The notes beneath the pieces are model-generated. The model did no database searches and was not told the DNA's origin. It saw only the letters and a list, made by a program, of their open reading frames with translations. Shown here one piece after another: positions 1-60,902 of a stretch of DNA of 64,000 bases. Position numbers and translations under genes: made by a program. Numbering within the stretch: the first letter of the stretch is position 1; every line of letters starts with the position of its first letter. Source of the stretch: an uncultured archaeon (GTDB lineage: Archaea; EX4484-52; JAADEF01); assembly GCA_964407715.1 (NCBI GenBank), contig CAYOWP010000003.1:15732-79731 (forward strand). Reading direction: 5' to 3'.

Positions 1-3000
1 TTGTTTTTTGTAGATATCCCGTATTATTGCGATAGGTTGCATTAACTATTACAAGAGTAGGTGTTGGACATAGAATATTAGAAGATGGTTTAAAACATCC
101 ATTATCATCATTATATTCAAGAGAATATAAAGCATCACCACATTTAAATGTTCCATAATCCAATTCGGTTATAGGATCAAAATTATTCATGTGAGAAATA
201 CAAACATCAACATATGAAAGATCCCCTTGAGCATTAAATAATAAATTCTCTAAGGTGACATTCAATTTATTTGTAGTTGTAAACTCAAAAATCTTATTGC
301 CTCTATTTTTATAATAAAATAGTGTTATGTTCATATTGTATTGAGATGGTGTCTCATTAAGTGAAATAGAATAGTTTAAATTATTATAAGTATAAACAAG
401 ATTGCTAAAATTACATAAACCAACAACCTCATTGCACTCAATATAATATGATTTATTATGAGATAAGTCATCCAAGATAATTGTAGCATTTGTTTTCTCT
501 GTTATAAGTAAACCATTTGATAAATTAAATAATATTTCAAATGATTGTCCTCTATTGTATATCCCAGCCTCTTTATATATAACCACTATTATTCTATCTA
601 CAATTGGTATGTCTCTCACCATAGAAGAAGAGTTTGAATAGTTGCCACCATAATCTTTTACATATAGTATGATAGAATAGTTACCAGTCTCATTAAGATA
701 TTTTCTTGGAACCTTTATCCAAAAGGTTCCGTTCGCATAATCACCGTAGAATATTGTGAAATCTGAAGAGGAAATAGAGACATTAGAGAAGATCCCCGAA
801 GGATAAGTGATCTCAACCACTGCCTCTGATATAGCAGTATCGTCACTTGCATTAAACACAATACCTAATTCATAATCCACATTAGATGTATTGTAAAGGA
901 AATATTTTCTATTATCTCCAGAATCCCATCCAAAAGCCCACCATGAAAGTGTTGGAGGTTGTGTATCAGTAGGTTTTAAGATGATGTAGCCAGTATCATT
1001 ATATATCTTCTCAGAGGTTGCACCATGTAAAACAGATACATTTATTGGCACTATTGTATCATTAATGATAGTAGTGGAGGTAAGGTTATAAGGTATTAAT
1101 AAGCAATTATCATGATAGTTGTAATAGGAAAGGTATTTTACATGTTTTTCTGGAGATTCTGTATAATTACCAATAGAGGTAAAGTTGATATATGTAGTAT
1201 TGGTTATGTTCAAAATGACAGTTACGTTATATAGATCACCATTTTTTGGGCATAGATGAATATAGGATAAGTTCTTAATCTCATTAGATAAAAATACGTT
1301 ACCAACTCCTCCCTCTGCACTAAGCACAATCTCTGGTTTTCCAAAGTTCACAAAGAAAGAGCTTTTTACTGTGAGATTCTTATCTTTTTGTGTGAAAATT
1401 GACTTTAAAGTATATTCTCCTGAGATGTTTATATTAAACAGATAACTTGGAAAGGAATAATTATAACATGTATAATTAGAAAGTATTTTTGCAAGATAGA
1501 ATGTGATTTCATGTATATAATCCGTACCGCTCCCCTCTATGGCAATGAGAATCTTGTTTGTTCTTATAGGATTTATAAATGTAAGATTGAGATATTGTGG
1601 TGTTGAATTATAGGGAATGTAGATGTTTTGGGTTGATGTATCCTCAGTTTCAACATATTTTCCTTGTTTTAAATCATAGTAATAAACTCGAAGAATCTCA
1701 TTGGGGCCATAGGGAGATTCTCCATACAAGCTAATGCCGCTAAAGACATATATATTATCAAATATATATGTAAGATTGGCATTTCCTGTAATGTATGTAT
1801 TGAATGTTGCATATGTCTCTAAATTACCATCATAAGATTGCTCTCCATAATCCACATAGCTTACATTAGTAATTCCTATAGGAACCTTAAAAACATCTGA
1901 TTGAGATTCATCAGCATAACACAAGTTCTCGGTAGTTGTGGAAAAGGAATAATAATCTATCTCATCAATATATCCGAATAATGTTCTGTTAATAAAAAGA
2001 GATAAATCATGTATAGGGGTAAGATTTCCTACAACACGAATCTCAGCATAGTTATTATCTGTTATATTTATGACCTCTTTATTTATAACAAATTTTGGAA
2101 TTACAATCTCTAAAGGAAATCTTTTTGAAATCATGCTTTTTGTGGTATAGTTAAATGTGTAGTTGTACTTATAAAGATATGTCAACAAACCTGTTTTATT
2201 TGTGGTGATATTAATACGTAACGTTATTGTTGTTCCATTAGTCAAATTGCCCAAGTCAATATAAGGATTATCATAACTTATCTCCACATACTTCTTTATG
2301 ATTCCTGTACCATTATCTATCTCAACAATGATATTATTGTTCATTTTGATTTTTGATGGATCTGAAAATGAAAAGTTAAGTGTTGCTGAATGCAAATCTC
2401 CATCTAAAACCTTTAAAGTCACATTAAAAAATCCAGTTTGATTGGCAAGAATCCTATAAACTGGAGAGGATGCTATTTTAATCAACTTGCCCGGTAAAAC
2501 ATAGAATTTCTTATGCGCTGTTAGAGGAGAAAAGTATGAATTCGTAGAAGCATTATAGTTTTTTAACTTTACTAAAGCATCAGCATAATAAACACCTGAA
2601 GAATTAAGTGGAAGAGATAAAGTATAGTTTACCATAAATATCATATTTTGCTTATCCTCTACAATACCTTCTAACTCAAAGTTAGAAAGATTATAAAAAA
2701 GAGTTTGGTTAACCACTTTTCCACTTTCATTAATTATTTCTCGTGTAATATTAAGATAAACTTCCTCAACATCTGTGGCGTTGTTATGTATAACTATCTT
2801 CAAATCACTATTATTTCCATAAGGATATATCTCTTTAGATATAAAAATCTCAATATATGGGTTTAGCACATATGTATAATATGCCATAGAATCATTATAT
2901 TTTCCTGAGTAATCTGAGATATTCGCATAAACCAAGGTTTTTCCAGGAGAAGAAGCATTAACATATAGGAATATAGGATGATTAAGAGGCGTAGAGAGAT

Positions 3001-3856
3001 TTGGCAATGTCTCCCCTGATCTCACATCACCTACACATACATTCAGGTTAGTTATAGGTGTCAAAATAGATTCATTAAAAATCGTAAAATTCCTCCAAAC
3101 ATCAAATGCCCTTCCATTATGCGTGGCATCATTAACATTTCTTATATGTGGAAACAAAGCCAACACATCTCCCACATAAGCATATGGATATTCTCTTATC
3201 CCCAATGTCCAATTAACCTCCTTATTTTTAGTGTATTTGTTCTGAAGAACAAGTTTTGGTGCCAAAATGTATGTGGAGGTTGAAGGCGAGCCGCATGATC
3301 CCCATCCCCACCCCACATTTCTCCAGTAATATAAACTCGCATTAAAATCTATAGAGATATCTCTTTCTTTGTAGGGTAAGGTATGAACGAAAGAGATATT
3401 TAAAAATGTGACTCCTGATGAATCTCCATCAAGATGGTCACAAATAAACTGATCATTTTCGTATGTACAAGCTCCAATAGAATCTGAAGGGCAATATCCT
3501 GCAAAATATTTGCAATCATACCCATTAGTACTACTATTATAATAACACATAGTAATGCATAAAGAATTATCGTACAAGGATCTAAACATTATTTTTTTAG
3601 GATAGTTCATCTCCTTCAAAGGTAATTTTATCTCATATTTACAATCATTATCACATCCACATCCTCCCTCATCACTTACTATGCTACTATAATTCACAAA
3701 TCTTTCTAAAGTATTTGCATCTCCACTCGTGATTTTGTTTGCATCTGTAGAATTAGTTGTTACTTTTATATATTGTGAATATGAAGGAGTTAAAAAAATA
3801 TAAAGCAGTACAATAAGAATAACCAAACCAAATGGATTAGATAATATCTTACGCAT
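1..3856 (-). CDS. Giant secreted, N-glycosylation-rich, Cys-containing surface protein. Partial: the stop codon lies beyond the left window edge, and more than 1280 aa fall inside the window
   Basis: Hand translation from the ATG at 3856-3854 gives MRKILSNPFGLVILIVLLYIFLTPSYSQ (signal peptide) followed by a continuous reading frame rich in N-x-S/T sequons. The ORF track shows no other ORF of 60 aa or more in 1-4344. The track omits ORFs without an in-window stop, which is why this one is absent. Confidence 0.7.
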   Translation of the reverse strand, partial: MRKILSNPFGLVILIVLLYIFLTPSYSQYIKVTTNSTDANKITSGDANTLERFVNYSSIVSDEGGCGCDNDCKYEIKLPLKEMNYPKKIMFRSLYDNSLCITMCYYNSSTNGYDCKYFAGYCPSDSIGACTYENDQFICDHLDGDSSGVTFLNISFVHTLPYKERDISIDFNASLYYWRNVGWGWGSCGSPSTSTYILAPKLVLQNKYTKNKEVNWTLGIREYPYAYVGDVLALFPHIRNVNDATHNGRAFDVWRNFTIFNESILTPITNLNVCVGDVRSGETLPNLSTPLNHPIFLYVNASSPGKTLVYANISDYSGKYNDSMAYYTYVLNPYIEIFISKEIYPYGNNSDLKIVIHNNATDVEEVYLNITREIINESGKVVNQTLFYNLSNFELEGIVEDKQNMIFMVNYTLSLPLNSSGVYYADALVKLKNYNASTNSYFSPLTAHKKFYVLPGKLIKIASSPVYRILANQTGFFNVTLKVLDGDLHSATLNFSFSDPSKIKMNNNIIVEIDNGTGIIKKYVEISYDNPYIDLGNLTNGTTITLRINITTNKTGLLTYLYKYNYTFNYTTKSMISKRFPLEIVIPKFVINKEVINITDNNYAEIRVVGNLTPIHDLSLFINRTLFGYIDEIDYYSFSTTTENLCYADESQSDVFKVPIGITNVSYVDYGEQSYDGNLETYATFNTYITGNANLTYIFDNIYVFSGISLYGESPYGPNEILRVYYYDLKQGKYVETEDTSTQNIYIPYNSTPQYLNLTFINPIRTNKILIAIEGSGTDYIHEITFYLAKILSNYTCYNYSFPSYLFNINISGEYTLKSIFTQKDKNLTVKSSFFVNFGKPEIVLSAEGGVGNVFLSNEIKNLSYIHLCPKNGDLYNVTVILNITNTTYINFTSIGNYTESPEKHVKYLSYYNYHDNCLLIPYNLTSTTIINDTIVPINVSVLHGATSEKIYNDTGYIILKPTDTQPPTLSWWAFGWDSGDNRKYFLYNTSNVDYELGIVFNASDDTAISEAVVEITYPSGIFSNVSISSSDFTIFYGDYANGTFWIKVPRKYLNETGNYSIILYVKDYGGNYSNSSSMVRDIPIVDRIIVVIYKEAGIYNRGQSFEILFNLSNGLLITEKTNATIILDDLSHNKSYYIECNEVVGLCNFSNLVYTYNNLNYSISLNETPSQYNMNITLFYYKNRGNKIFEFTTTNKLNVTLENLLFNAQGDLSYVDVCISHMNNFDPITELDYGTFKCGDALYSLEYNDDNGCFKPSSNILCPTPTLVIVNATYRNNTGYLQKT

Positions 3857-3910: not shown

Positions 3911-4150
3911 GAGAAGAAAATCGCTGTTACCAAATACCTTTAGCATGCTATCTTTTTCAATGATTAGCCGCTGCAATGCTCTCTAATAAGAGTTATGGTT
4001 CCCATTAACCATTTATCCTTTTTAAGGTTAGCTGCTGTAATGTAGCGCATTGATAAGGTATGCTTTCCCTTAACCATTTTATAAGAAATAATCAACGGAA
4101 AGATTAGGAGGCTAATTGCTTCAAAATGTCTTTGTAACAGATGTATCTCT
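3911..4150. repeat. Family B palindromic-module array (degenerate). Units contain GGTTAGC(T/C)GCT and TTCCC(A/T)TTAACCAT
   Basis: Repeated ggttagctgct...ttcccttaaccat units can be read directly in the sequence. Confidence 0.6.
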
Positions 4151-4287
4151 CATTAAATCCTCATCAAAAAATTATTGGACAATTTGTTCACGGGAAATAT
4201 AGCCATATTCAAAGGGTTAACCGCTCTAATGCGCTTCTTTAAAGGGTTATGTTTCCGCTTAACAATAAAGAATTATTGGACAATGCC
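4151..4287. mobile_element. Family A MITE half-element, reverse orientation, ending in the TIR AATTATTGGACAATGCC
   Basis: Reverse complement matches the left half of the full elements (ggcattgtccaataattctttattgttaagcggaaa...cccgtgaacaaattgtccaataattttttgatgagga). Confidence 0.6.
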
Positions 4288-5584: not shown

Positions 5585-6060
5585 ATGGTTAAGGGAAATC
5601 ATATCCTCTAAAAAAATCGCATAACAGGATAGTAACCTTCAAGAGAAGGATAGCCGCTTCAAACTGCTTTGAGAGACCACATCTTCCACTCAACCATTTT
5701 AAATAAAATTTTGTTAACGTGAAAAATTGCTCCCTAAACCACATTATTGCATTGTAACCTCTATGAAAAGTTACCTGCTTTAATGTGCTTTTTTAGAGGG
5801 TTATGCTTCCCCTTAACCATTCTCTCATTTTGAAATATGGTTACCGGGAAGATATCGCTCTTTTAAGGTACATTGCAGCATGCTAACCTTTTTTTGAGGT
5901 TAGCTGCTTCGGAACCTCATCAAAAGGTTAGCTGCTTTGACATGCTGAACAAAAAGGTTATACTGCCTGTTAACCATTCTTTATTTTTTAGAAATAATTG
6001 GTTAACGCGAGGAATAGCCATCACAAAAGATACCGCTCCTAAAGTTTTATAGCATAACTA
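5585..6060. repeat. Family B palindromic-module array (about 4 units)
   Basis: Units such as cattgtaacctctatgaaaagttacctgctttaatgtgcttttttagagggttatgcttccccttaaccat. One unit is nearly identical to a unit at 8236-8296. Confidence 0.7.
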
Positions 6061-7604: not shown

Positions 7605-8400
7605 TGGTTAACGCAACAAAAATCATCCCAGGAGTATTGGAGAAGCTAACCTCTTTTTAAGGTTAGCTTCTCTAATGTGTCTCATTTAGAATGTACGCTT
7701 CCGCTTAACAATTTTCTAATAAATGGTTAACGTGAAAAAATCACTTTCATCCAGGTATTACAGGATCCTAACCTGGTTAAAAGTAGGTGTCTCACAAACC
7801 GCTTAGAGAGGTTAGCTGTTTTGATATGTCTTGTTGATAAGGTATCCTTCCTCTTAACCATTCTTTCATTTTGAAAAATGGTTAACGCGAGGAATAACCA
7901 TTCTAAAAGGTTTGCGGCATGCTAACCCTTTAAAAAAGTCAGCTGCTCACAAACCCCTCTAAAAGGTTACCTGCTCTAATGTGCTTTTTAAGAGGGTTAT
8001 GTTCCCGTTAACCATTTTTTTTATTTTTGAAAAATGGTTAACGCGAAGAATAGCCCTCACGAAAAGGTTCATGGCATTGTAACCGCTTTAAAAAAGGTTA
8101 GCTGCTTCCAAAACGCTCATAAAGGTTAGCTGCTCTAATGTGGTTTTTTAGAGGTTACATCTCCCCTTAACCATTTTTTATTTTAAAAAATTGTTAACGG
8201 GAAAAATAACCATTCTGAAGGGTTTTGCGGCATTGTAACCTCTATGAAAAGTTACCTGCTTTAATGTGGCTTTTTAGAGGGTTATGTTTCCCCTTAACCA
8301 TCTCTTATTTTAAAATGATGGTTAACGGGAAAATATCGCTTTCAAAAACACATCGCAGCATTGTAATCACACAACCGGTTAGCTGCTCCACAAACCACTT
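7605..8400. repeat. Family B palindromic-module array (about 6 units)
   Basis: Repeated ggttagctgctctaatgtg...ttcccgttaaccat[AT loop]atggttaacgggaa...gcggcattgtaacc. Confidence 0.75.
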
Positions 8401-8480
8401 AAAAAGGTCATCATATTGTGAGGTGGATTACTTATATAAAGTCTCCACTTCAATTAACTCTCTCTTATACCAAGTCATTC

Positions 8481-17585: not shown

Positions 17586-17685
17586 CCCTCATGTTATGAT
17601 ATCTTTTAGATGCTTCTTAACAATACACAACATACATATAAAAAGTAGAAAATTTTTTAAATTTAACGGTCATTTTTCCTTTAAA

Positions 17686-17944
17686 GGCATTGTCCAATAA
17701 TTCTTTATTGTTAAGCGGAAACATAACCTCTCAAAGAAGCGTATGAGAGCAGTTAACCCTTTGAATAGGGCTATGCTTCCCGTTAACAAATTGTCCAACA
17801 ATTTTTTAATGAGGATTTGTTAACGAAAAAATTCGTTCTTATCATTGCATTAGCTCTCTAAGGTTTGCTGCTCTGATGCGCTTCTTTAAAAGGCTATTTT
17901 TCCGCTTAACAAATTTTGTTAATAGGGAATTATTGGACAATGCC
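17686..17944. mobile_element. Family A MITE, full composite (about 259 bp: two half-elements head to tail), TIRs GGCATTGTCCAATAATT / AATTATTGGACAATGCC
   Basis: Terminal inverted repeats can be read directly. The internal junction aaattgtccaacaattttttaatgagga repeats the TIR. Flanked by cctttaaa / ctttaaaa. Confidence 0.75.
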
Positions 17945-17990
17945 GACTTTAAAATACAGCAAATCTCGTAAGAGCTAAAGTTCCTTAAAA

Positions 17991-18120: not shown

Positions 18121-18215
18121 GATTTGTTAACAAAAAATTTGGTTAACGAAAAAGATCACTATTATCAAAGATTTTGCAGCATGCTAACCCCTCTTAAAGG
18201 TTATTTCCATTGACG
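18121..18215. repeat. Family B module fragment
   Basis: tggttaacgaaaaag...ttttgcagcatgctaacc. Confidence 0.5.
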
Positions 18216-21352: not shown

Positions 21353-21501
21353 GGAATTGTCCAATAATTTTTTAATGAGAATTTATTAACGAAAAAATTC
21401 GTTCTTACAATCGCATCAGCTCTACAAGGTTCGCTACTCTAAGCGCTTCTTTAAGAGGCTACCTTTCCGCTTAACAAATAGAGAATTATTGGACAATGCC
21501 T
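21353..21501. mobile_element. Family A MITE half-element (about 149 bp) with 8-bp TSD tctaacat
   Basis: TIRs ggaattgtccaataatt / aattattggacaatgcc; flanks ...ctctaacatt | element | tctaacatc... Confidence 0.75.
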
Positions 21502-35836: not shown

Positions 35837-35912
35837 ATCATTTAAATTTATTTTTAAACATTTTAAATATTTTTATGTTTAGAAGTTTAGAATCAAATCA
35901 CCTTTAAAAAAA

Positions 35913-36565
35913 GGTTAGTTGCTTCAATGCGGTTTTGATAGCAATATTTCCCGTTAACCATGTTCTTATTTTGGAAAATATGGTTAAAGGGAAGCATACC
36001 ATCTCAATAGCGCGTTAGAGCAGCTAACCTTTCTAATGGATTAGTGAGCAGCTAACCTTTAATTAGGTTAGTATGCTGCAATGTGGTTGTGAAAGCGATA
36101 TCTTCCCGTTAACCATATCATTTATTTTAAAAAATGGTTAAAGGGAAACATACCTCTCTCATTCAGCACATTAGAGCAGCTAACCTTTTTATGCGGTTAC
36201 CATGCTTCAAGACCTTAGTGATAGACGATTTCTTCCCGTTAACCATGTTCTTATTTTGGAAAATATGGTTAAAGGGAAGCTTACCCCATCAACAGCACAT
36301 TAGAGCATCTAACCTATTGCAAAGGGTTACCATGCTACAAAACCTTTGTGAAAGAGATTTCCTCCCGTTAACCATATTTCAAAATAAAAATTTGGTTAAC
36401 GAAACACCTACCCATATACCCAAAGCGCATTACAGCATCTAACCTGTTTAAGCGGTTAGCATGCTCTAAGAGCTGTGGTAATAAGGGAATTCTTCCTGTT
36501 AACCATTTTAAAAATGGTTAGCGAGATATATACTAATTCATTTTGCGTATCAAATCATCTAACCT
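35913..36565. repeat. Family B palindromic-module array (about 5 units); two units carry near-identical loops
   Basis: ttcccgttaaccatgttcttattttggaaaatatggttaaagggaagc occurs at 35948-36000 and again at 36233-36285. Confidence 0.8.
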
Positions 36566-36656
36566 TTCTAAGCAGACAATAAGAATAAAATTTATATATA
36601 GTTGGTTTTGTTAATATATTATTATAATTGGGTTCCGAATAGGAGGTGAAGGAAGG

Positions 36657-41203: not shown

Positions 41204-41337
41204 ATATAAAATTCCCTCTTATGCTATTTTAAAAAATTTTTTAATAACCTCATCTAAAAACTCTCTTTTTCTCTAAAAAATAAAGTAGCAATATATTCGT
41301 AGAAGCAACATCATCTTAACTAAAATTTTTATTAAAA

Positions 41338-42185
41338 TGGTTAACGAAAAGCAAATCTTGTCAATAGCACATTACACCAGCTAACCTCAAAAAAGGTACC
41401 ATGCTACAAAGCCTTCGTTGGAGGAATTCTTCCTGTTAACCATATCTCTTAATCTCTTAAAAAATAAAAAATTGGTTAACGGGAAACATAATCTCTTCAT
41501 TCAGCATATTGAAGCAGCTATCCTTTTTAGAAAAGGTTAGCATGCTACGAAGCATTTGTGAGAGCGATATCTTCCCGTTAACCATTATTTTAAAATAATT
41601 GGTTAACGGGAAACATACATTATCATAAAGCCATATCAGAGCAGCTAACCTTCAAAAGATGGTATCATGCTCCAAACCCTTTGGTAAGGCGATATCTTCC
41701 CGTTAACCAATTATTATTTTAAAAATTTGGTTAAGGGAAAAATAGCCAATTCATTTAGCATATCAGAGCATCTAACCTTCTTAACCGGTTAGAAAGCAGC
41801 TAACCTTTAAAAGAGGTTAGCATGCTGCAAAACCTTTCGGAGAGATATTTTCTCCCCTTAACCATATCATTTATTTTAAAAATGGTTAAGGGGAACCATA
41901 CCTTTCTCCTTCAGCATATTGAAGCAGCTAACCTCATGAAGGCGTTTTGAAAGCAGCTATCCTTTTTAGAAAAGGTACCATGCTGCAAAGCCTTTCTGAG
42001 AGCGATATTCTCCCATTAACCAATTTTTATTTTTTTTTTAAAATTAGTTAACGGGAAAACATACCTCATCGAGAACCACATTCCAGCAGCTATCCCTTTT
42101 TAAGAGGTTAGTGAGCCTCTAACCTTTCTAAGCAGTTATCATGCTACAAAGCCTTTGGTAATAGCGATTTTCTTGCGTTAACCAG
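41338..42185. repeat. Family B palindromic-module array (about 6 units). This is the clearest example of the alternating-orientation BIME-like architecture
   Basis: Each unit reads TGGTTAACGGGAAACATAcc-N12-CAGCATATTGAAGCAGCTAACC-linker-GGTTAGCATGCTGCAAAGCCTTT-NN-GAGAGCGATATCTTCCCGTTAACCA. Units are separated by AT-rich palindromic spacers. Confidence 0.85.
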
Positions 42186-46685: not shown

Positions 46686-46948
46686 GACATTGTCCAATAA
46701 TTCTTTATTGTTAAGTGAAAACATAACCTCTCACAGAAGCGCATGAGAGCAGTTAACCCTTTGAGTAAGGCTACGCTTCCCGTTAACAAATTATTTTGAA
46801 TAGATAAAAATTGTTAACGGGAAGAAATCGCTATTACTACAGGTTTTGTAGCATGTCATCTTTAAGGTTCGCTACTTTAATGCGCTTCTTTAAAAGGTTA
46901 CTTTTCCGCTTAACAAAATTTGTTGATATGGAATTATTGGACAATGTC
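46686..46948. mobile_element. Family A MITE, full composite (about 263 bp), with 9-11 bp TSD cacattcaa(ga)
   Basis: Left flank ...acacattcaa|gacattgtcc...; right flank ...ggacaatgtc|cacattcaagag. Confidence 0.8.
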
Positions 46949-46963
46949 CACATTCAAGAGTCA

Positions 46964-47497
46964 TATTACAGCAGATAACCTTTTTTTGGCATATTACTTG
47001 CATTAACTAAACTCTTTATTTGGAAAATGGTTAAGGTAAAATATTCTCTCAATCAAGCACATTAGAGGGCAGATGATCTCTCTCTGAAAAATGATAGTGC
47101 GAGAAAAAACCTTCATAATGAGATCCTTAATAATTTTAGAATTTATTTTATAAAATCTGGTTAACAGGAAAATATCGCTAACATAAAGATTTTGCAGCAT
47201 GGCATCTTTTTAGGTGGTTAGCCGCTCCAATGTAATTGCTTTAGTGGTATGTTTCTCGTTAACCAAATTTTTATTTTGAAAGATGGTTAACGCGAGGAAA
47301 TCGTTTTCACAAAGGCTTTGCAGCATGCTAACTTTTTTTGGTTATCTGCTTTTGATATGGATCATCTCCTGTTTAATAAAATTGGTTAAGAAAAATTTAA
47401 TCTCCTTCTTAGGAGTATTACAGCAGCTAACCTTTTTTTAGCAGGTTATCATGCTGCAAAAACTTTCGTAATAATGTTTTTTTCTTCTGTTAACCAG
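46964..47497. repeat. Family B palindromic-module array (about 4 units)
   Basis: ggttaacgcgaggaaatcg..., tttgcagcatgctaac..., cagcagctaacc... Confidence 0.7.
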
Positions 47498-47589: not shown

Positions 47590-47673
47590 GTCGGGGTCGC
47601 CTAGCCTGGTATGGCGCCAGCCTGCTAAGCTGGTTCCCGTAAGGGATCGAGGGTTCGAATCCCTCCCCCGACG
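47590..47673 (+). tRNA. tRNA-Ser (anticodon GCU) with a long variable arm
   Basis: GTCGGGG acceptor stem, anticodon loop CUGCUAA, variable arm TTCCCGTAAGGGATC, T-arm GAGGGTTCGAATCCCTC, 3' CCCCGAC-G. Confidence 0.85.
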
Positions 47674-47680
47674 TTTTTTG

Positions 47681-47838
47681 GGCATTGTCCAATAATTTTT
47701 TGATGAGGATTTGTTAACGAGAAAATTCGTTCTTACAATCGCATTAGCTCTACAAGGTTCGCTACTTTAATGCGCTTCTTTAAAAGGTTACTTTTCTGCT
47801 TAACAAAATTTGTTGATATGGAATTATTGAACAATGCC
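47681..47838. mobile_element. Family A MITE half-element (about 158 bp) inserted into the T-tract 3 nt downstream of tRNA-Ser, with 8-9 bp TSD (c)gttttttg
   Basis: ...acgttttttg|ggcattgtcc ... ggacaatgcc|cgttttttgag. Confidence 0.8.
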
Positions 47839-47892
47839 CGTTTTTTGAGATTTGCAATAATCCTTTTAAAAAATATTTTTTAAGATAATAAT

Positions 47893-52772: not shown

Positions 52773-53460
52773 TGGTTAACGGGAAAAATAACCTCTCTCT
52801 TTGGGTATTGAAGCGCCTAATCCTTTTGAAAGAGGAACTATGCTGCAAACCAAAGTGTAGAGTGATATCCTCCCGTTAACCATTTTTTATTTGGAAGATG
52901 GTTAAGGGAGACATTCCTTATCAATAGCACATTAAAGCAGCTAACCTTTCTAACCGGTTAGGAAGCAGCTAAACCTTTTTAAGTGGTTAGCATGCTGCAA
53001 GACCTTCTGGAAAAGCGATTTCCTCCCGTTAACCAAAATTTTTATTTTTTGAATTGGTTAACTGGAAGCATACCCAATGAACAAGCCATAGCAAAGCAGC
53101 TAACCTTTTTAAGCGGTTTAGAAGCAGCTAAACCTTTTTGGAAAGGATGCCATGCTGCAATATCCTTTGTGTTAGCGATTTCCTCGCGTTAACCAGATTT
53201 TTATTCAAAATAATTGGTTAACGGGCAGCATACCTTGTCAAGAAAGCACATTACAGCAGCTAACATTTTTAAGCGTTTTGGAAGCAGCTGACTATCTCAT
53301 GGGAAGTTAACATGCTCAAAGATCCACTGTAATGGTTATCTCTTCTGTTAACCTTTTCTTTGAAATAAAATAAAGATCTGTTTAAGTGGAATAATAACAA
53401 ATGAATGAGCCATCCTATAGCAGTTAATCTTTCTGAGCAGATAGGAAATAGCTATCCTTG
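52773..53460. repeat. Family B palindromic-module array (about 5 units)
   Basis: tggttaacgggaaaaataacc..., gcagctaacc, ggttagcatgctgcaa, ttcctcccgttaacca. Confidence 0.8.
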
Positions 53461-53498: not shown

Positions 53499-53805
53499 GG
53501 CATTGTCCAATAATTCTTTATTGTTAAGCGGAAACATAACCTCTCACAGAAGCACATGAGAGCAGTTAACCCTTCATAGCGATTATGAAGCAAGTAACCT
53601 TTCAACAATGTTAACCTGCCCCAAAACCCTTTGAATAGAGCTACGCTTCCCGTTAACAAATTGTCCAATAATTTTCTGATGAGGATTTGTTAACGAGAAA
53701 ATTCATTCTTACGATTGCATTAGCTCTATAATGTTCGCTACTTTAATGCACTTCTTTAAGAGGTTACTTTTCCGCTTAACAAATAGAGAATCATTGAACA
53801 ATACC
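53499..53805. mobile_element. Family A MITE, full composite with an internal family B insert (about 307 bp), flanked by a direct repeat of at least 10 bp, tcaattgcat
   Basis: ...caatacctcaattgcat|ggcattgtcc ... gaacaatacc|tcaattgcattaaac. Confidence 0.8.
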
Positions 53806-55879: not shown

Positions 55880-56110
55880 ATGTTGCCCAATAATATATTT
55901 TGAAAATTTTGTTAACGGGAAACAATGCTATTCAAAAGATTTTAGAGTATGCTATCTTTTTCAATGGTTACCTGCCGTACAGTATGTTTTTAATATGCCT
56001 ATGTCTCCCCTTAACCATTTTTATCCTTTTTAATTTGGTTAATGAGAAACTTTCGCTTTCACTAAGGTAGTGCGGCATAGTAACCTGGTTAAAAATATTG
56101 GACATCACTA
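55880..56110. mobile_element. Degenerate family A-like element with decayed TIRs (catgttgcccaataat ... aatattggacatc)
   Basis: Internal family B-type cores (gttaacgggaaacaa, tctccccttaaccat) lie between TIR-like ends. Confidence 0.5.
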
Positions 56111-60644: not shown

Positions 60645-60902
60645 GGCTTTGTCCAATAATTCTTTATTGTTAAGCGGACACATAACCTCTCACAGAAGCG
60701 CATGAGAGCGGTTAACCCTTTGAATAGGGCTATGCTTCCCGTTAACAAATTGTCCAATAATTTTTGATGAGGATTTGTTAACGAGAAAATTCGTTCTTAC
60801 GATTGCATTAGCTCTACAAGGTTTGCTGCTCTAATGGGCTTCTTTAAAAGATTACTTTTCCGCTTAACAAAATTTGTTAATAAAGAATTATTGGACAATG
60901 CC
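60645..60902. mobile_element. Family A MITE, full composite (about 258 bp)
   Basis: ggctttgtccaataattctttattgttaagcgga ... tttccgcttaacaaaatttgttaataaagaattattggacaatgcc. Confidence 0.75.

Follow-up and report, generated by a model that had tools for sequence, protein, structure and literature searches.

Background

Prokaryotic MITEs of type II resemble an IS in their TIRs only and make up a recognised class (PMC10969869), and high MITE densities have been reported in DPANN genomes (PMC11602168). The element described here, at 17686-17944 of a 64-kb stretch of DNA from an uncultured DPANN archaeon (the window, that is, the whole of the sequence analysed), shares with that class its small size, non-coding character, multiple copies, TIRs of an IS clade, target duplications, intergenic position and an interior that bears no relation to the IS. 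What sets it apart is that the source of its interior is identifiable, as a second abundant repeat family of this genome (here called family B), and that its long form reads as an inverted partial dimer retaining a disabled internal TIR. With the IS903/IS5 family (DDE_Tnp_1) it has in common an 18-bp TIR of the pattern GGCnTTGTnnAATAAnTC and duplications of ~9 bp; unlike the members of that family it is a MITE without a transposase gene, and the archaeal transposases are just 25% identical to that of IS903B.

Bacterial REP/BIME and REPIN sequences are mobilised by RAYT Y1 transposases (PMC3333891, PMC2817692, PMC3116915). Family B recalls BIMEs in being intergenic and clustered, with two arm types alternating in orientation and short linkers, whereas REPs are GC-rich hairpins of 20-40 nt and a B unit is AT-rich, ~110 nt long and bounded by 14-16-nt inverted termini, which places the family outside the short GC-rich hairpins by which REP/BIME sequences are recognised. 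Bacterial ISs have been reported to insert into REPs (IS1397, and the preference of ISPpu9), not to carry REPs between their ends (PMC1525189). A MITE of Porphyromonas gingivalis with an internal minisatellite, as outlined in one report (PMC4596501), is likewise a prokaryotic MITE whose interior is another repeat class; there, in the same outline, the tandem minisatellite is private to the MITE, whereas here the interior belongs to a free-standing family that occupies 6.5% of the region. The initial annotation of this DNA called the relationship between MITE and resident module rarely documented, which is fair for the combination with B units and too broad for type II MITEs as such, these being a recognised class (PMC10969869). 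It is unusual for a MITE to carry units from a free-standing, BIME-like family, but this is not a new kind of system or machinery.

The MJRE that Suyama, Lathe and Bork described in 2005 are said to be abundant intergenic palindromic repeats of Methanocaldococcus jannaschii, old and diverged. By that description they resemble family B, as an abundant archaeal family of intergenic palindromes, but the host of B is not Methanocaldococcus. Equating B with MJRE was premised on such a host and was set aside, the closest named SecY relatives being DPANN archaea (48-63% identity, mostly Aenigmarchaeota). A Methanocaldococcus host with the TIR of ISMja1 (archaeal 'IS6') was also rejected: the SecY and L18 encoded here resemble those of M. 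jannaschii no more closely than those of Pyrococcus, and the TIR matches IS5-family elements.

Copies of the element and their insertion sites

The element is 259 bp long and its inverted ends are perfect (18/18). Within the 64-kb window its TIR GGCATTGTCCAATAATTC finds 13 matches at <=3 mismatches, against 0.10 expected, and these define seven copies: four long, two short and one with a single end (Table 1). A related metagenome contig (L114), whose synteny with the window is poor, carries another two long-form copies, at sites different from those in the window. The copies, 7 per 64 kb and 2 in L114, are 148-307 bp long and non-coding, with no similarity to transposases; together with family B they make up ~9% of the region. 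An Rfam search of the MITE and of family B gave no match at gathering or relaxed thresholds.

Table 1. Coordinates of the parts of the element at 17686-17944, of the MITE copies and of the family B stretches in the window
Feature	Position	Strand	Evidence or remark
Left TIR	17686..17703	+	GGCATTGTCCAATAATTC; 17/18 to P0062-type IS5-family IS ends, 14/18 to IS903B
Right TIR	17927..17944	-	exact TIR match
Left flank, degenerate target-site duplication TCCTTTAAA	17677..17685	.	7/9 vs GACTTTAAA at 17945-17953
Unit 1, B-like: full alpha arm, loop, shortened beta arm	17708..17786	+	nhmmer, profile 2-107, 29.7 bits, E 1.3e-8
Internal TIR copy AAATTGTCCAACAATTT (GGC tip absent, direct orientation) and linker TTTAATGAGGATTT	17788..17818	+	alignment
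Unit 2, B-like: diverged beta arm, then reverse-complemented alpha arm	17819..17912	-	profile 3-108, 23.4 bits, E 1.2e-6
Long-form copy	17686-17944	+	both TIRs
Long-form copy	60645..60902	+	~92% identical to 17686-17944; both units match B profile
Long-form copy, extra ~48-nt B-type mini-module within unit 1	53499..53805	+	10-bp duplication TCAATTGCAT
Variant long-form copy, internal TIR absent, centre = canonical B spacer and beta arm	46686..46948	+	9-bp duplication CACATTCAA
Short form: TIR, linker, one B unit, TIR	47681..47838	+	9-bp duplication CGTTTTTTG, tRNA-Ser 3' T-run
Short form	21353..21500	+	duplication TCTAACAT(T/C)
One-ended copy: left TIR, unit 1, internal TIR, linker	4150..4287	-	right TIR absent
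Family B array, representative	41337..42184	.	nhmmer, up to 82 bits
Other family B stretches	3913-4077, 5585-5977, 7605-8406, 18140-18205		nhmmer
Other family B stretches	35884-36575, 47158-47496, 52773-53444, 55910-56093		nhmmer

Target duplications of 8-10 bp accompany six of the eight copies that have both ends, window and L114 combined. They are clean and 9-10 bp long at 46686, 47681 and 53499, match at 8/9 at 21353 and at L114 copy a, and are degenerate at 17686 and at L114 copy b; none is recognisable at 60645. The target duplication of IS903 is 9 bp and that of the archaeal relatives 8-9 bp, and the length seen at the MITEs thus agrees with that of the group.

Two insertion sites deserve description. 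The short MITE at 47681 landed in a T-run directly after tRNA-Ser (flanks 47672-47680 and 47839-47847); the duplication CGTTTTTTG covers the last 3 nt of the tRNA, and the T-run is recreated on the far side. The variant at 46686 was inserted inside the alpha arm of a B unit, and its own unit 2 scores 44.9 bits against the family profile. In a comparison of reconstructed empty sites, only this copy was clearly inside a B unit, and we claim no general preference of the MITE for such units. The same copy has GAC instead of GGC tips at both ends (46686-46703, 46931-46948), as does the Micrarchaeota IS described below, and is the only one without an internal TIR (the one-ended copy has one); it may be an older form, or may have been moved by a slightly different transposase.

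Relatives whose SecY is 89%, 86% and 75% identical have ribosomal-protein loci without a match to the MITE or to B, and a search for B in their 5-12 kb loci (SecY 75-89% identical) likewise returned no match. The rpl18/tRNA-Cys spacer is free of the MITE in L119 (SecY 89%) and in L117 (SecY 75%). A 46-nt block at 17626-17671 of the window is identical in L119 and stops 14 nt short of the insertion; the flank on the right is diverged in that relative, so that the exact empty site at 17686 cannot be drawn. This block, CACAACATACATATAAAAAGTAGAAAATTTTTTAAATTTAACGGTC, lies upstream of rpl18 and is 100% identical in L119 (reverse complement, ~875-920); it is probably the operon promoter, with the MITE sitting just outside it. 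Elsewhere in the window, 1-3856 on the reverse strand holds no complete ORF of more than 54 aa and belongs to a 1735-aa gene extending beyond the start of the window; the gene is seen in L122 (4305-9512) and has no Pfam match.

The TIRs and their likely transposase

That the TIR is of a kind recognised by a transposase, as the initial annotation had proposed, is borne out by IS5-family elements of other archaea whose ends match it at 17 of 18 positions. The closest of these, P0062, is 1101 bp long with ends GGCGTTGTCCAATAATTC (17/18) and an 8-bp duplication, and P0046 is 1078 bp long with ends GGCTGTGTCCAATAATTC (16/18) and duplications of 8-9 bp; elements of this type, ~1.1 kb in size, lie on contigs with archaeal-type neighbours (Nop, RNA polymerase subunit L). 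The nearest well-known relative is IS903B, with a transposase to which that of P0062 is 25% identical (over 91% of its length) and a TIR, GGCTTTGTTGAATAAATC, that matches the MITE TIR at 14/18. A 17-mer TIR scan of genome contigs, with 100 matches that are mostly chance, added a 1092-bp IS in a Micrarchaeota MAG that has GACATTGTCCAATAATTA at both ends (16/18 to the MITE TIR) and ORFs matching DDE_Tnp_1 and DDE_Tnp_1_5; P0062 and P0046 encode homologues of its transposase. Both the ends and the duplications of the MITE are therefore consistent with the action in trans of an IS5-family, IS903-like transposase.

No IS5-family transposase was found in the window, in the 5.6 kb upstream of it or in L114, ~82 kb of the lineage in all. 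A metagenome search for related loci with the transposase of the Micrarchaeota IS returned nothing, and neither did scans of viral contigs for the MITE and for B junctions.

The TIR survey also produced some observations on other loci. The Micrarchaeota IS transposase (L023, 4229-5089) is broken by one in-frame stop codon, and the same MAG has the IS end in a second copy, at the terminus of a different contig (L099, 6738), where it adjoins a long uncharacterised coding region on the reverse strand. The string GACATTGTCCAATAATT recurs in uncultured Bacilli MAGs (L007, L010, L021, L022, L031, L032, L046-L052 and others), where it is apparently a repeated protein-coding motif, with similar sequence downstream of the different matches, and unrelated to the MITE; this motif explains much of the noise of the genome scan.

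Family B and the interior of the MITE

Family B comprises ~40 units in the window, each an AT-rich imperfect palindrome of ~110 nt with the pattern ATGGTTAACGGGAA...GCAGCTAACC, loop, GGTTAGCATGCTGC...TTCCCGTTAACCAT. A unit consists of two related arm types in the order alpha, loop, reverse beta, with ...AGAGCAGCTAACC at the end of the alpha arm and ...TGCAGCATGCTAACC at that of the beta arm. The units occupy ten intergenic stretches, mostly as tandem arrays, for a total of 4.13 kb or 6.5% of the window. RNAalifold on 14 units found no conserved long stem, and conservation is confined to the inverted termini of 14-16 nt and to a motif, GCAGCTAACC/GGTTAGC, in the centre.

The comparison with the MITE used an nhmmer profile of B (114 positions, from ~40 units) that was built with all MITEs masked and then searched against the unmasked sequence. 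In each of the seven MITE copies the profile matches the interior, with scores of 13.7-44.9 bits (E-values of 2.5e-3 to 5e-13) and alignments that mostly span profile positions 3-110, and the best score among 1400 dinucleotide-preserving shuffles of the interiors was 5.4 bits. Between the ends, only linkers of 5-16 nt are not B-unit sequence. The MITE interiors are thereby shown, at the level of sequence comparison, to be homologous to the resident B modules; the cores cited in the initial annotation as common to the two families are indeed present, within a likeness that runs the length of the unit.

Some B units also contain short stretches resembling the TIR itself. Certain beta arms read (G)GCATTGTAACC, with 7-8 nt in common with the TIR tip GGCATTGTCC (8084-8097, 8230-8243, 5744-5757), and certain left spacers read AATAATTGG, resembling AATTATTGG of the inner TIR. 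Such likenesses may be microhomologies with a part in the fusion of TIR and B sequence, or may be chance.

Architecture of the short and long forms

The short form, 148-158 bp, is a single B unit between two TIRs and occurs alone, as two solo copies with their own target duplications. Its order is TIR, a 14-nt linker TTTGATGAGGATTT, diverged beta arm, loop, reverse alpha arm, a linker of 5-16 nt, TIR. The long form, 255-307 bp, begins with TIR and TTTATT, then has an alpha arm, loop and shortened reverse beta arm, and continues as a short MITE, the first three bases (GGC) of which are replaced in the alignment. Since the long form embeds a short MITE lacking GGC, its internal junction is the old short-form left TIR without its tip. 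In the copy at 17686-17944 the segment 17788..17818 aligns as a short-form left end, in the same register as the left ends of 47681 and 21353, and unit 2 groups with unit 2 of every other copy (MAFFT/NJ).

These relations modify an earlier description of the full element as a tandem of two TIR-bounded halves whose junction repeats the TIR. The junction does repeat it, in direct orientation relative to the left TIR, at positions 4-18 (17790-17804); the GGC is missing and one mismatch is present in this copy. Because the internal TIR lacks GGC and is in direct orientation, the left half is not TIR-bounded by itself: only the right half corresponds to an independent MITE, and the left is an inverted 'TIR + alpha-arm' end. 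The long form is accordingly best described, from its alignment, as an inverted partial dimer in which a second such end has been inverted and fused on the left.

The dimer gives the long form the character of a foldback with arms of ~75 nt. At 17686-17944 the outer left 73 nt pair with the outer right 83 nt, with 65/73 positions matched, and the single strand folds as one long foldback at -67.3 kcal/mol (z = -14.4).

Three copies depart from this plan and show later reshuffling of MITE interiors. The extra ~48-nt piece in unit 1 of copy 53499 scores 34.4 bits against the B profile, copy 46686 has an array-type centre, and the one-ended copy at 4150-4287 continues straight into the B array at 3913-4077.

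Direction of descent and proposed history

There is reason to think that the MITE interiors descend from family B. In a MAFFT/NJ tree of oriented units (sequences of ~100 nt, computed without bootstrap support), all MITE-borne units form one clade beside the B units 7605-7711 and 41600-41709. Identity is 78% among the unit 2 copies and 92% between the unit 1 copies, whereas free B units average 55% (range 28-82%). Outside the MITEs, matches to the TIR core at <=3 mismatches number 4, versus 6.8 in shuffles, and none lies near a B array. Because the MITE units are one young clade and no degenerate TIRs flank the B arrays, these comparisons favour the view that the cargo arose once, from a B family already old and diverse, and then multiplied in a recent burst.

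The element would then be a non-autonomous, chimeric type II MITE with IS903-like ends of the IS5 family and an interior of B units, a reading to which we give a probability of roughly 0.65. Under this chimeric reading, a DDE transposase of the IS903-like clade, supplied in trans, would bind the two outward-facing TIRs and move the element by the usual IS903-type reaction, leaving a target duplication of 8-10 bp. One B unit would have come between two TIRs to give the short form; an inverted 'alpha arm + TIR' copy would then have fused to its left, at the cost of the GGC tip of the earlier left TIR, and yielded the long form, which, as a foldback with ~75-nt arms, would have been amplified. 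MITE interiors would later have swapped segments with the B arrays.

The analysis shows the homology of the interior, the identity of the TIR, the target duplications and the lack of the element in a relative's orthologous spacer; which transposase acted, in what order the steps came and how the unit was captured are inferred. The variant at 46686 and the one-ended copy at 4150-4287 could equally be ancestral, and the order from short to long is not fixed. Possible routes by which a B unit could have come between TIRs are insertion of B units, should these be mobile, into an IS or MITE whose remainder was then lost; gap repair or template switching; and recombination of a TIR-bearing element with an array. 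It had been suggested that the MITEs arose in situ by capture of resident modules between transposase-recognised ends, or the reverse. The derivation from resident modules is favoured by the clade of 78-92% identity that stands beside B units averaging 55%; as to capture in situ between the ends, nested insertion and array recombination fit about equally well.

The first of these alternatives holds that B units are themselves small mobile elements with 14-16-nt inverted termini (ATGGTTAACGGGAA...TTCCCGTTAACCAT) that entered an existing IS5-type MITE, or the IS while it still had its transposase, the original interior disappearing later. The terminal conservation of B, inverted and without a conserved long stem, would suit a mobile element. 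So would the B half-unit at 18140-18205, which is missing from the orthologous spacer of a relative; copy 53499 has its extra mini-module in unit 1, and copy 46686 sits within a B unit, so that the families interpenetrate. Yet no older MITE backbone is left beyond the 5-16-nt linkers, the outermost ATGG/CCAT that free B units have is missing from the embedded ones, which show no duplications of their own, and the embedded units form one clade and not a sample of B diversity, so that we regard this course of events as unlikely, if a serious candidate.

Descent in the opposite direction, with the B arrays as decayed, TIR-less remains of earlier MITE bursts that were later amplified in tandem, is improbable in our judgement. 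It has a published precedent in Coxiella, where truncated QMITE2 copies are proposed to have come to resemble REPs (PMC10969869), and the passage of the one-ended copy (4150-4287) into a B array speaks for it. However, TIR cores outside the MITEs are no commoner than in shuffles and are absent near B, and B is far more numerous and diverse, with regular tandem arrays and conserved termini of its own; the MITE clade, moreover, stands beside the diversity of B and not at its root. That the shared cores are only the GTTAAC palindrome and AT-rich filler, as could be suspected of two AT-rich families that each have GTTAAC-type hexamers at their unit ends, can be dismissed, given full-length profile matches of up to 44.9 bits against <=5.4 bits in shuffles and the 11-28 bits that 6 of the 7 copies keep against the B profile once all GTTAAC-like hexamers are masked, which settles the doubt that the initial annotation had itself raised.

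Implications

The chimeric origin favoured here invites a further, doubtful idea, namely that family B, as a REP/BIME-like sequence for which no transposase of its own is known, spreads to new loci inside IS5-type MITEs, after which loss of one TIR or both, by array recombination or decay, is followed by tandem amplification. The one-ended copy at 4150-4287 and the variant at 46686, with array sequence between intact TIRs, would then be intermediates. If true, this would provide a concrete route by which palindromic repeat arrays spread in a DPANN genome.

Many MITEs share only their ends with known transposons, and the origin of their interiors has been a long-standing loose end; here the donor can be named. 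The 64 kb preserve what appear to be intermediates (a short form, a long form built as an inverted dimer, another with the centre of an array, and a one-ended copy that is joined to an array), and the assembly and reshuffling of a chimeric MITE can thus be traced directly in one lineage, in which two repeat families of a small DPANN genome exchange sequence.
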